From the IMG/VR virus record IMGVR_UViG_3300026094_000002: a stretch of 64,000 nt of DNA. One strand, written 5' to 3'. This document shows, piece after piece, positions 2,807 to 8,836 of this stretch (its first letter is position 1; each line of letters opens with the position of its first letter). The position numbers were made by a program, and so were the translations under genes. A model generated the notes under the pieces. That model had not been told where the DNA came from and did no database searches. It worked only from the letters and a program-made list of their open reading frames with translations. This DNA comes from a virus (taxonomy: Duplodnaviria; Caudoviricetes).

Positions 2807-3151
2807 TTATTTGTTTTTGGGGGAGTTTCCAGTAGAATCAAATGTTTCACTTTGTGATTGATAGCGATGAATAATTTCTTCTAATTCATCTCGCTGTTCT
2901 GCTGAAAGATTTTGGTCAATATGAGATTTATGTTCTAAAACCATTGCGAGTTTTGTGTTGAGACGAATCATATCGTTATCCAACATTCTAACTCTATCTA
3001 CTAACTTAATAAGTGTTCCCATTGTCTCGCCAATAACTGGATCAACGGTTTCTGTTACCCATCGCCATATATAATAAATGAACCCACCCATTCCCACTGC
3101 GGCAACAATAGGAAAACCATATTCATTAATGGCATTGACAATGTTATCCAT
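2807..3151 (-). CDS. Small membrane protein (GFPI motif, TM helix plus coiled coil)
   Basis: GFPIVAAVGMGGFIYYIW hydrophobic segment; paralog of the upstream ORF. Confidence 0.75.
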   Translation of the reverse strand: MDNIVNAINEYGFPIVAAVGMGGFIYYIWRWVTETVDPVIGETMGTLIKLVDRVRMLDNDMIRLNTKLAMVLEHKSHIDQNLSAEQRDELEEIIHRYQSQSETFDSTGNSPKNK

Positions 3152-3153
3152 TT

Positions 3154-3432
3154 TTAATCTCGGCGAGCATCATCCTTGCCCTCATTCGCAGCAATCCGCT
3201 CTATGTTTGGTTTAACTCCTAATGCATAACTCATAAGTGCATCTATTTTTACAAGATCATTGTTCATTGTTAAGACACGGTTATCTAATTGAGATATAAT
3301 GTTTTTGAGAGTGTTTAGAGATTCGGTAACACTTGCAAGTATAAATCTCAGCGATATAAAAACAAATGCTCCTGCTACCAGTGCACCAGCAATAGGGAAT
3401 CCAACTTCAGATACAAGTGTTAAAAACTCCAT
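3154..3432 (-). CDS. Small membrane protein (GFPI motif), paralog of 2807..3151
   Basis: Start re-assigned to MEFLTL (3432); GFPIAGALVAGAFVFISL; ATAAATA at 3438-3444. Confidence 0.75.
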   Translation of the reverse strand: MEFLTLVSEVGFPIAGALVAGAFVFISLRFILASVTESLNTLKNIISQLDNRVLTMNNDLVKIDALMSYALGVKPNIERIAANEGKDDARRD

Positions 3433-3440
3433 AAAAGTAT

Positions 3441-5846: not shown

Positions 5847-6918
5847 ATTTTATAAAATTTCCTTGTAAAATGTCTATTGAATAACCATGTGATTCACTTA
5901 GTTTAAGTTCAAATGTGTTTCCCGCTTCATCTTTTCTTCTTACTGTAAATTCTGGTGGCGGGGCTTGAAAGAATATACCAGTTTCTGGATCTAATCCCTC
6001 TGGCCTGTCTCCAAACACATATTGGTTATCTAATTGATTTGCAAGTGCGGAATTAACGTTATTACGAAGATTTTGCATAATATCAAATATATCAACTTTT
6101 AATATATCTGCAGTATCACCTAATTCTGTATTCCATATTCCATCAATTGTTTCTTGCAAACTATCCTCATCTAATTCATCAAACTCAAGATAATCCACGT
6201 CCAACGCATCTGCCTGTTCTTGCAACTCTCTTGCAGTCAAGTCATAGTTGGATTCTTTTCTCACAATCAACATACTGTTTAATTGTGATGGGTCTATATC
6301 AAGCACCAACGGCTTAGATGGTGGCTTATTTCCTGTTTCTATTACTGTAGTTTGAAATGCTTCATTCATTACAACCATACCCGCATCGGATTCAACAGTT
6401 ATTTCACCCACAAAACATTGTGCGGGTTCTCTGGGATTCACTATTCTGCATGAAGGCAATAATGTGACTGTGGAGCCTCCTATTTCATCTACTACCATCG
6501 CAAAGTCAGTACCACGTACACCAATGGTAGCGGACGGCGTTTCTATTTTTACATTCTGCTGATGCTTTTTCGCGATTTGTCCAGATGCATATTTGACAGA
6601 ACCCAGACTGATTTTTAGGGCAAGTGAACCTTCGTTTGCAGCAGGATCATACACAAATTCATCTATAACAAGACGAGAATGCTCTGTGACATCAACACGA
6701 GTATCATCCACAAAGTCAATTCTCATCCTGCCTTTTTCGGTCACAGCAGTATCGTAGGATTCTACTTCTGTGCCTTGCTCACCCTGAATAACGGACTCTT
6801 CACGTTCTAACACGCCCGAGCCTGATATTTCTGACACGCTACCTATTGCGGCGTGTGCAGAAATATTAGTCAGACTGATCAATATCAACAGTAGCGTTAT
6901 CGCCTTCAAATGTTGCAT
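5791..6918 (-). CDS. FecR-domain secreted protein with curlin-like C-terminus
   Basis: Signal peptide (start MQHLK), FecR motifs DTRVDVTEHSRL and IETPSATIGVRGTDF; ends GIGNNRIRIDQSR. Confidence 0.85.
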   Translation of the reverse strand: MQHLKAITLLLILISLTNISAHAAIGSVSEISGSGVLEREESVIQGEQGTEVESYDTAVTEKGRMRIDFVDDTRVDVTEHSRLVIDEFVYDPAANEGSLALKISLGSVKYASGQIAKKHQQNVKIETPSATIGVRGTDFAMVVDEIGGSTVTLLPSCRIVNPREPAQCFVGEITVESDAGMVVMNEAFQTTVIETGNKPPSKPLVLDIDPSQLNSMLIVRKESNYDLTARELQEQADALDVDYLEFDELDEDSLQETIDGIWNTELGDTADILKVDIFDIMQNLRNNVNSALANQLDNQYVFGDRPEGLDPETGIFFQAPPPEFTVRRKDEAGNTFELKLSESHGYSIDILQGNFIKYDYQTGIGNNRIRIDQSR

Positions 6919-7552
6919 CCACTGTGTTGTCATTTATGCCGCTCTGTGTCACGTTATAAACACCGCCGCCACCTGTAATATCAAGATTGAGTGAATGTCC
7001 GTTGACATCACCGTCACCATCCATATCAACATTAACAGTATTGCCACCTGCAAGACTGCTACTGTTGTCAATCACCACAGTAGCATCAGCATCTACACCG
7101 TCTACTTCAGCGTCAATCACGTTCGCATCACCGTCTACTGTGAATGTTGCTACAAGATCGGAAGCATCCGCAGTTTCGCCTATGCGAAGATCTATGTCTG
7201 CACCATCACCATTAACTGTAATATCTGCTGTCACAGTTTCACATTGAACTGCATCAACACTATCACAAGCAAGATCAACATTGTTGTTGTTGCCAGTAAG
7301 GCTAATAGTACCTGTGTAGGTATTACCATTGATAGTTGCTGCAATAATATTGTTATCGCCTATCTGATCTATGTCAAAAGTCATATCATCGCCATTCAGT
7401 ACCATTGGTTCTTCTGAAGTACCTGCAACGTTATCTGTGCCATCTTGTGTGATATCAAGATCAAGATTATCACCAATCTGATCCACATATATTTCATTTG
7501 CCCATGCCATACTAACCATTAGTATCAGCGTTAGAGTTAATGCCCCTCTCAT
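6866..7552 (-). CDS. Curlin-repeat protein (CsgA-like), extremely acidic
   Basis: Start re-assigned to MRGAL; signal peptide; NEIYVDQIGDN, DIDQIGDNN, YNVTQSGINDN repeats; ends VDIDQSD. Confidence 0.85.
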   Translation of the reverse strand: MRGALTLTLILMVSMAWANEIYVDQIGDNLDLDITQDGTDNVAGTSEEPMVLNGDDMTFDIDQIGDNNIIAATINGNTYTGTISLTGNNNNVDLACDSVDAVQCETVTADITVNGDGADIDLRIGETADASDLVATFTVDGDANVIDAEVDGVDADATVVIDNSSSLAGGNTVNVDMDGDGDVNGHSLNLDITGGGGVYNVTQSGINDNTVDATFEGDNATVDIDQSD

Positions 7553-8348
7553 TTTTGTCGCTCCCTTTAAACTGCCAGAGTTCTTTTTCCGCTCCTTGAT
7601 AAACAAGTTCTATTACTCCGGCTTCTATTGCTGCCCTCACAGCATAATTTACAGGCTCGTTGGCTGTCATGCCCATTTCAGTCTCAACGAGTTCTGTTCC
7701 CATATCAAAAAAACGAAATAAATTTGCCCCCGTCTTTGTTGATAATATTGTTTTTTCTGTTGCCACAGACGTTAAAACTCTTCCTGAATTAACACTTACT
7801 AACCTCATTACAACAGTTACTGTATCTACCCTGTACTCGGTATCTACCCCAATTCCCAAGTACCTTGCCCCTGCACCTCCGGTTAAAACATTTGCATCAT
7901 AACCTACAATACCACCCTCTAATATTAACCCTGCAAATCGCATTGGGTCTAATTGGCGGCTCTCTTCGCCATAATTTTCTCTGGTATTTCGTATAAGTTG
8001 TCTTTCTTTTACTAAATTATCTAAACCTACTCGCTCAACAACATCAAACCACGAACTATTGCCGATATCTTGTAAACTTTTAATAACCCAAACCTCTGCA
8101 CCTTGTGTAACTGCGGTAGATAAACTTGCTATATTTTCATTGGGTTGTCTTTGTCCTGTTTTATCTGAAAAATCATAAACTGCTATCGTAATCTTTGGTC
8201 CATTTAACTCGGGGATATCATCTAATTTTTCCTGCATAGGAGCAGGTTGTATATCTGCAGGTTCAGATTGAAATCTATCTTCTCCAGTTGCAGCACACCC
8301 ACTTAAAATCGCTAAACAAAATACAAGATTTATAGGTGTCTTTATCAA
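7512..8348 (-). CDS. csgG: Curli secretion channel lipoprotein CsgG
   Basis: Lipobox LSGC; IAVYDFSDKTGQ, STAVTQG, WFDVVERVGLDNLVKERQLIR, LEGGIVGYD, NEPVNYAVRAAIE. Confidence 0.95.
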   Translation of the reverse strand: MIKTPINLVFCLAILSGCAATGEDRFQSEPADIQPAPMQEKLDDIPELNGPKITIAVYDFSDKTGQRQPNENIASLSTAVTQGAEVWVIKSLQDIGNSSWFDVVERVGLDNLVKERQLIRNTRENYGEESRQLDPMRFAGLILEGGIVGYDANVLTGGAGARYLGIGVDTEYRVDTVTVVMRLVSVNSGRVLTSVATEKTILSTKTGANLFRFFDMGTELVETEMGMTANEPVNYAVRAAIEAGVIELVYQGAEKELWQFKGSDKNERGINSNADTNG

Positions 8349-8836
8349 AATAATAATTCCCCGGGACCGGGTATATCTATTTCTGTAAAGCCCTCTGGTC
8401 CATCTACAGTAAGTGTAATAGCACCTGATTCAGATCTATTCCAAGTAATAGTGGATCCTTCTATTTCCGTAGACCCACCGTCAGGCTGAGTACAAGATTC
8501 ATCCCCTTCCTCACATTTTGTAAACATATTGTCTACCATTTGTTTTGACAAAGTGGCGTAAATTCTTGATTCCATGTTAGTCACAAACTTCTTGAGAATA
8601 GAATCTTCCATTTCTCTTTCTAAACGTCGTTGCTCTGCTTCTTTACGTTCACGAATTTCTTTCTCGCGATTGTGCCTCAATTGTTCATTAGACAAGACGT
8701 GGTTTGACCATCCTTGTCCTGAAAAAGAAGGATTTTTAAATTGATGTGTTAGTTGGGATGCAAAAACTGTACCGCCAAAGAGGACCATGGCGGCAACAAG
8801 TACTGCAGTGATAAGACAATTTTTAAGTAAACACAT
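8345..8836 (-). CDS. csgF: Curli assembly protein CsgF
   Basis: Signal peptide then SQLTHQFKNPSFSG, a CsgF N-terminal motif; directly upstream of csgG with 4-nt overlap. Confidence 0.85.
   Translation of the reverse strand: MCLLKNCLITAVLVAAMVLFGGTVFASQLTHQFKNPSFSGQGWSNHVLSNEQLRHNREKEIRERKEAEQRRLEREMEDSILKKFVTNMESRIYATLSKQMVDNMFTKCEEGDESCTQPDGGSTEIEGSTITWNRSESGAITLTVDGPEGFTEIDIPGPGELLF

Follow-up and report, generated by a model that had tools for sequence, protein, structure and literature searches.

The window, a stretch of 64,000 nucleotides of phage DNA (Caudoviricetes; IMG/VR record IMGVR_UViG_3300026094_000002), carries at positions 2807-8836 a set of genes for curli-type secretion, together with genes for a FecR-domain protein, a CHASE2 adenylate cyclase and two small membrane proteins. 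This set is a published phage module, here in a new carrier and in a variant layout. We consider it a little better than evenly probable that this module acts as a secretion device combined with a sensor, and we infer the steps of that reading that go beyond the identity of the genes. Few accessory gene sets of ocean phages are as widespread as this one, which accounts for about 0.1% of assembled viral proteins (PMC9599517), and its function has been called a mystery in three papers. A csgF/csgG cluster was described in pelagimyophages by Zaragoza-Solas et al. in 2020 (PMC7029224). In 2022, Wittmers et al. reported the arrangement 'HK'-CsgF-CsgG-CsgA/B-FecR-CsgA/B-adenylate cyclase, with HK for histidine kinase, in podo- and myophage pelagiphages, and found the module to be expressed in ocean metatranscriptomes and transferred between phage families (PMC9599517). 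A pore or a role in lysis timing was proposed by Buchholz et al. in 2022 (PMC9004378). The original prediction for this DNA was right that curli genes were already known in phages; it also took the combination with FecR and a cyclase to be new, and this part falls, as the whole set was published in 2022 (PMC9599517). The window does not overturn the published picture, being one more carrier of a known cassette. What it adds is that the phage FecR protein belongs with an old FecR-CHASE2 pairing of envelope sensors, found in SAR11 cells too, rather than with iron regulation; that the 'histidine kinase' is a conserved small membrane pair, which also accompanies lipases that lack a signal peptide; and that the range of the module extends to jumbo phages of inland waters.

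All eight genes are on the minus strand and overlap or abut one another, as originally predicted, and nearly all of the names proposed for them agree with Pfam and PHROGs. Two phages with the same genes in identical order were recovered by DNA and protein searches of phage records: Methylophilales phage Melnitz (MZ577097), whose record is annotated with curli components, a FecR domain protein and an adenylate/guanylate cyclase, and Pelagibacter phage HTVC008M (KC465899). Profiles made from the proteins of the window, Melnitz and HTVC008M were used to scan 162 loci, of which 76 are cellular and 86 are phage-type, four of the latter being filed under bacterial metagenome-assembled genomes. The co-occurrence of csg genes with FecR and the CHASE2 cyclase, on which the original prediction depended, is borne out by this survey. 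The order csgF-csgG-Cur1-FecR(-Cur2), where Cur1 and Cur2 are the two curlin-like proteins, is invariant in the 86 phage-type loci, and a cyclase gene accompanies this core in nearly all loci whose contigs extend far enough; the cyclase gene lies downstream in most, upstream in three and inverted in three. The small membrane pair is located directly upstream of csgF in some of the other loci and convergent after the cyclase in others. The layout of the window, in which the pair follows the cyclase in the same orientation, was not seen in the other 86 loci. Since the cyclase and the pair stay attached to the core in three or more positions and orientations, the survey argues for selection on the gene set rather than for frozen synteny.

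Compared with the pelagiphage module, also described as a viral type VIII secretion system, the window has the same gene families and the same core order, and its proteins are 40-83% identical to their phage homologues. It differs in its jumbo carrier, in the position of the pair after the cyclase, in a Cur2 of 108 aa and in a ClpP gene directly upstream. In the pelagiphage paper, the small proteins are labelled as histidine kinase and the CHASE2 domain goes unnamed (PMC9599517). Rather than a 140-kb pelagimyophage, the carrier is a jumbo phage from inland or mixed waters: the window's own smwA protein, the first of the small pair, is encoded on a contig of 305,141 bp, the replicative helicase is closest to those of the jumbo phages PA5oct and Atu_ph07 (54% identical), and the DNA of the window was found in runs from several studies labelled as lake water, aquatic, freshwater sediment and soil metagenomes. 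Ribonucleotide reductase and tRNAs are also encoded in the window. Two further contigs (L173 and L174, 72-86 kb; positions 4953-14255) have the small pair, csgF, csgG, a curlin gene and FecR, followed by four extra genes and the CHASE2 cyclase, and they encode a T5-type small terminase and a T5 deoxynucleoside monophosphatase; the module is thus apparently present in T5-like phages as well.

In the reading that we favour, the phage would install its own CsgG/CsgF pore late in infection, through which two curlin-like proteins would be exported and reach the cell surface. The FecR-domain protein would stay in the periplasm or span it and serve as a co-sensor of the CHASE2 domain, as is thought for its bacterial counterparts. 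The state of the pore, of the fibre or of the envelope would then set the synthesis of cyclic AMP (cAMP) in the infected cell. The cAMP would act on host receptors, because no phage cAMP receptor was found in the five module-bearing records searched. The small pair would be an obligatory companion of this device, most likely with a holin-like or gating role.

The secretion part is the best recognized one. The gene csgF (8345..8836, minus strand) encodes 163 aa and matches Pfam CsgF (PF10614, E 2.8e-11) and phrog_35372 (E 2.9e-34). The N-terminus of the mature protein carries the motif FKNPSFSG, equivalent to FRNPNFGG in CsgF of E. coli. In structures of CsgG-CsgF, this N-terminal motif binds CsgG. 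The product of csgG (7512..8348, minus strand; 278 aa; PF03783, E 1.2e-54) is a predicted outer-membrane lipoprotein channel with the lipobox LSGC, and it shares 40% identity with CsgG of E. coli (E 9e-60). Signal peptides are found at the start of CsgF, Cur1, Cur2 and the FecR protein.

Cur1 (6866..7552, minus strand; about 228 aa) is strongly acidic, with 45 D/E residues versus 2 K/R. The copy in the window stays under the cut-off for the family Curlin_rpt (18.6 bits), which is matched by 16 of 24 Cur1 homologues at E <= 0.01, the best at E 5e-6. Its C-terminus is a conserved tail of the type G-D-x-x-D-V-D-I-T-Q-S-D, as seen in a logo of the tails. The AlphaFold2 model of Cur1 is an all-β repeat of strand-turn-strand units (mean per-residue confidence, pLDDT, 82; predicted template modelling score, pTM, 0.79). 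Cur2 (5520..5846, minus strand; 108 aa) is recovered by its own profile at E 4.9e-32 and has no Pfam match. It is related to the Cur1 family by hhalign (probability 99.3%, E 1.9e-20), with the N-terminal repeats of Cur1 as the paralogous part, and it ends in C-x5-G-C-S-V-S-I-N-Q-N. The copy in the window is unusually short, as its homologues in other phages have 140-480 aa. The label 'curlin-repeat protein' seems a fair one for Cur1 and Cur2 at the level of sequence. Identity with curlins by fold was looked for and found no support, since both the Foldseek search with the Cur1 model and the hhalign comparison with CsgA were non-significant.

The FecR-domain protein (5791..6933, minus strand; 380 aa; PF04773, E 2.6e-10; phrog_37870, E 1.2e-100) is encoded between the two curlin-like genes. 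After the signal peptide, it can be described as composed of a FecR β-sandwich [31-200], an acidic linker [about 215-310] modelled with low confidence, and a C-terminal β-domain [320-378]. The model has a pLDDT of 71 overall; the C-terminal domain, made of six strands, is confident and has no structural match. The β-sandwich aligns with the periplasmic domain of PupR (6ovk_R), which was crystallized in a complex according to the title of the entry, with a Z score of 12.9 and a root mean square deviation of 2.5 Å over 118 residues. Residues 27-122 also resemble the periplasmic retention module of the MpIBP adhesin (5ix9; Z 7.1, Foldseek probability 1.0). Thus, the periplasmic fold of the FecR/PupR anti-sigma regulators is shared. 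Unlike these regulators, the phage protein has neither a cytoplasmic anti-sigma domain nor a membrane anchor, as judged from the sequence and the model, and the open reading frames (ORFs) scanned around the module included no gene of the FecI or FecA type and none for a sigma factor or a TonB-dependent transducer. A role as a FecR-type anti-sigma factor was therefore rejected, because the protein consists of just a signal peptide and a periplasmic FecR fold with its extension. The C-termini of Cur1, FecR and Cur2 share a tail of the type hydrophobic-x-hydrophobic-x-Q (about 50 distinct sequences each). Beyond this motif, the idea that the FecR C-terminus is a curlin repeat was rejected: hhalign gave E values of 0.05 and 0.0025 with probabilities of at most 12%, and Curlin_rpt was matched by none of 35 FecR proteins, although E values up to 1 were allowed.

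The pairing of FecR with CHASE2 is an old bacterial one that exists without curli genes. A CHASE2 cyclase adjoins the FecR gene in about 20 of the 76 cellular loci with FecR-domain relatives, and CsgG is present in none of them; the pairs occur in Myxococcota, Omnitrophota, Planctomycetota, Elusimicrobiota, Spirochaetota and Alphaproteobacteria. As in the phages, a secreted FecR-domain protein is encoded beside a membrane receptor whose CHASE2 domain is periplasmic, and the output is often a class III cyclase that has this C-terminal tail as well. In contrast to the phage module, the sampled bacterial loci have no CsgG, CsgF or curlin genes, and the bacterial FecR partners often have long C-terminal extensions, one of which has an outer-membrane-type β-barrel, where the phage protein has an acidic linker and a β-domain of 60 aa. 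Published cases agree with this pairing. In Campylobacterota, a CHASE2 cyclase is accompanied by an outer-membrane protein that has a FecR domain, by a phosphodiesterase and by a TPR protein (PMC9239204). A LysM-FecR protein and a CHASE2 histidine kinase share one operon in Burkholderia (PMC5192318). For the CHASE2 cyclases of S. meliloti (CyaD1/CyaD2/CyaK), sensing through the outer-membrane protein NsrA is reported in papers that cite the finding (PMC13001267). Because a FecR-domain protein beside a CHASE2 sensor recurs in bacteria, a relay from FecR to CHASE2 to cAMP seems a reasonable inference by analogy. Single-cell loci of SAR11 (L093, positions 4641-9614, and ten similar ones) have an operon of a CHASE2-PP2C phosphatase, a DUF2860 protein, a FecR-domain protein of 191 aa and an uncharacterised protein of 344 aa. 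The Pelagibacteraceae, the host clade of the pelagiphages, thus own a FecR-CHASE2 sensor with a different output.

The CHASE2 class III adenylate cyclase (3441..5495, minus strand) has 684 aa and matches Pfam CHASE2 (E 2.3e-42) and Guanylate_cyc (E 3.1e-22). It has a transmembrane or hydrophobic segment [9-28], the CHASE2 match [14-323], a hydrophobic block [about 307-384], the cyclase domain [418-603] and a conserved C-terminal tail [616-684]. Alignment to solved cyclases upholds the claim that its catalytic residues are intact, namely D429 and D475 for metal, K471 and D545 for substrate, and N552 and R556 for the transition state. By these features, the protein is an inner-membrane CHASE2 receptor with a predicted periplasmic sensor and a complete active site. 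The substrate position equivalent to Asp545 is Ser in 7 of the 31 aligned phage homologues. The grouping of phage versus cellular sequences in a tree was examined for one component of the module, the cyclase. In the maximum-likelihood tree, all phage cyclases form one clade with a support of 100, in which the window cyclase is nested on a long branch with a support of 98; therefore, the module was inherited or exchanged within the phage pool.

Elsewhere in the window, a free-standing gene of about 119 aa (22430-22786, minus strand) shows homology to the final strands and C-terminal tail of phage and bacterial CHASE2 cyclases. Its product matches our own profile of the cyclase tail at E 1.3e-9, with 24-36% identity, and belongs to a separate, mostly viral family of proteins of about 115 aa. 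The tail profile matches the cyclase's own tail alone in Melnitz and two other phage records, and it has no match in HTVC008M and a fifth record. The free-standing protein could regulate the cyclase or mimic its tail, to judge from this homology.

Several observations weigh against a secretion and sensing device of this kind. On the secretion side, the loop of CsgG that aligns with the constriction of the E. coli channel differs, being QPNENIASLSTA versus KPYPASNFSTA in E. coli. The profile of the Cur1 family has no significant similarity to E. coli CsgA by hhalign, and a Foldseek search of the PDB and of Swiss-Prot models with the Cur1 model gave no significant match, only weak β-helix matches at E > 0.1 and no CsgA. 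No clumping of Melnitz-infected cells was seen by Buchholz et al. (PMC9004378). On the sensing side, the putative contact between FecR and CHASE2 is suggested by the adjacency of their genes; complex prediction with the periplasmic domain of CHASE2 [25-310] and the FecR domain [29-215] gave scores of 0.31 and 0.01 versus a mark of 0.32, which we count neither for nor against a contact. The FecR-domain protein SMc02177 of S. meliloti is dispensable for signal perception (PMC5498481). The transition-state Asn of the cyclase is Ser in 23 of the 31 phage cyclases and Asn in the other 8, the window included (N552), and the five phage records carrying the module have no match to cNMP_binding. Finally, podophage versions of the module often have no cyclase and keep FecR (PMC9599517), so FecR must also work without the cyclase. 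The display of amyloid and the coupling of cAMP output to fibre assembly that the original prediction put forward find no support in these data.

The small membrane pair leads to a first alternative. Its genes are smwA (3154..3432, minus strand, in an ORF from 3474; 92 aa; phrog_18771, E 2.9e-28) and its paralog smwB (2807..3151, minus strand; 114 aa; phrog_18771, E 1.3e-28). The smwA protein has an N-terminal transmembrane segment with GFPIAG, a coiled-coil-like middle and the charged C-terminus NEGKDDARRD, while smwB has a transmembrane segment with GFPIVAA and the motif LVDRVRMLDNDMIRL. Alignment of the surveyed loci shows that the small genes are always one A-type, of 92 aa with the GFPIAG segment and the C-terminal end DRIAANEGKDDARRD, and one B-type, of about 106-114 aa with a GFPIV/IAA segment. 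The best conserved part of the module is smwA, with a median identity to the window of 70% versus 47-60% for the other parts. Its clusters number more than 1,333, and a Pfam domain is present in none of them; a profile search of 1.84 billion representatives gave 864 clusters of the small pair, all 150 of the matches listed having 69-209 aa. The published 'HK' (PMC9599517) is almost certainly this pair, judged by its position only. The label of histidine kinase itself was rejected, since none of 34 members of the family matches HisKA, HATPase_c or other kinase families. Comparison with Atlas, Pfam and PHROGs gave only likenesses below threshold, with YvrJ, BhlA/UviB holins and the N-terminus of a PHROG holin.

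Neighbourhoods were sampled for six divergent members of the pair: two are located upstream of csgF, two beside a lipase, and two on contigs too short to judge. In the two lipase cases (L164, 5411-6710; L166, 863-2111), the A+B pair adjoins a class-3 lipase that lacks a signal peptide, with no csg genes in view. The pair is therefore not specific to the curli module, being a wider phage feature that accompanies envelope-acting genes, and its occurrence beside lipases as well as csg genes keeps a holin-like role open.

These properties would suit a device linked to lysis, an extension of the idea of Buchholz et al. 2022 (PMC9004378), in which the pair would be a holin/antiholin gate, the outer membrane would be the target of CsgG/CsgF and their cargo, and lysis would be timed or conditioned by the FecR-CHASE2 cyclase. 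We regard this as unlikely, at a level that still deserves attention. The pair has general hallmarks of holins, that is, 92-114 aa, one N-terminal transmembrane segment and a charged C-terminus, in addition to the weak likenesses to holin families, and the conservation of smwA points the same way. Its place beside the signal-less lipase is like the arrangement in which a holin is encoded next to a lytic enzyme, and 8 of the 86 loci have a lipase homologue no more than 8 kb from the module. However, no holin family is matched significantly, and no endolysin, spanin or lysis cassette was seen adjoining the module in the window or in one other surveyed locus (L038). Moreover, CsgG cannot depolarise the inner membrane because it sits in the outer membrane, and a bare pore would leave unexplained why csgF and two genes for curlin-repeat cargo are kept.

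A second alternative, which we likewise hold to be improbable without being negligible, is that two functions travel together. In this case, the curli proteins and FecR would make fibres, for aggregation ('sibling capture') or for a block of superinfection, with FecR replacing CsgE/CsgB, and the cyclase would separately reprogramme the host through cAMP. The position of the FecR gene between two curlin genes, with overlapping reading frames, speaks for it, as do the tail type shared by the three secreted proteins, the variable position and orientation of the cyclase relative to the csg core, and the podophages that retain FecR with no cyclase (PMC9599517). On the other hand, nearly all loci of sufficient extent include the cyclase, and the C-terminal region of FecR is not significantly similar to curlins. 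The adjacency of FecR and CHASE2 is, in addition, kept in many bacteria that have no curli genes, and because of this the simplest partner of the phage FecR protein would be the CHASE2 domain, as in the secretion and sensing reading.

A more specific version of the lysis idea appears quite doubtful to us. The smw pair would be a lysis gate of the holin/antiholin type serving marine and freshwater T4-like phages, pelagiphages and jumbo phages, and the curli-FecR-CHASE2 set would be an attached sensor of the state of the envelope. Here, the FecR protein would have a LapA-type, retention-like N-domain, the acidic linker and a small outer β-domain; held at or through CsgG, it would report the state of the surface or the fibre to the cyclase, and cAMP would tune the opening of the cell. 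If true, this would be a new kind of lysis-inhibition circuit.

The least tenable alternative, and a very improbable one, is an import channel, raised by Wittmers et al. (PMC9599517) and Zaragoza-Solas et al. (PMC7029224), in which an ungated CsgG pore would admit iron chelates, cofactors or macromolecules with FecR as an iron-related regulator; no CsgE is encoded near the module among the scanned ORFs, which would fit, but the FecR protein has no anti-sigma domain or membrane anchor, the scanned ORFs include no FecI- or FecA-type gene, the cellular FecR relatives pair with CHASE2 sensors and not with iron transporters, and two conserved secreted curlin-repeat proteins would be left unexplained.

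The curli system of E. coli (csgBAC-csgDEFG) has in common with the phage module the related CsgG, the NP-x-F-x-G motif of CsgF and repeats of the type Q-x-G-x-x-N in the substrates. It differs in that the phage substrates are far more acidic and have no significant profile likeness to CsgA, and in the loop aligned with the CsgG constriction. A Pfam scan of the ORFs at 1.8-10.6 kb found no csgE, csgC or csgD family, in agreement, over that range, with the original prediction, and FecR, the cyclase and the small pair are added in the phage. CsgE, CsgC and CsgD are absent from alphaproteobacterial systems too (PMC9599517).

Two gene starts were revised. Cur1 most likely begins at ATG 7552 and not at TTG 7606, and the first small paralog most likely begins at ATG 3432, which gives its 92 aa. 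Late motifs of the form TAAATA had been noted upstream of csgF, the cyclase and the membrane pair. At the cyclase and the membrane pair, these motifs are found as ATAAATA: one is at 5501..5507 (minus strand), within the gap of 24 nt ahead of the cyclase ATG, and the other at 3438..3444 (minus strand), overlapping the cyclase stop codon 5 nt ahead of the smwA ATG. A third copy is at 2779-2785. Upstream of csgF, the sequence differs from what had been described, being the late-promoter-like motif TATAAATT (8863..8870, minus strand), which the sequence itself shows 27 nt ahead of the csgF ATG and which is followed by TAAATA (8858-8863) and not ATAAATA. A ribosome-binding site, AGGAAAG, lies between TATAAATT and the ATG. 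The motif agrees with the T4-type TATAAATA at 7 of 8 positions; the T4 late promoter itself has 2 copies in the window, neither at the module. Because ATAAATA is depleted in the window (14 observed versus about 29 expected), the ATAAATA sites are plausible candidates for late promoters, and so is TATAAATT. Scans for sigma-70 promoters and terminators gave results at chance level only.

Other genes are located around the module. The ClpP gene (8900-9484) lies directly upstream of csgF, and just upstream of ClpP is a gene for a predicted lipoprotein of 198 aa (9633-10229, minus strand; lipobox LAAC), to which no family was assigned and which was not found adjoining the module in other loci. The window also encodes ClpS (23605-23931), the small heat-shock protein HSP20 (23989-24435) and SufE (10233-10643). 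One of the two lipase-bearing contigs (L166) has the ClpS-HSP20 block in common with the window, plus GroEL/GroES. On the other side, a gene of the sulfotransferase family (1863-2510, minus strand; Pfam E 4.2e-9) is located between the module and genes for tRNA-Thr and tRNA-Leu.

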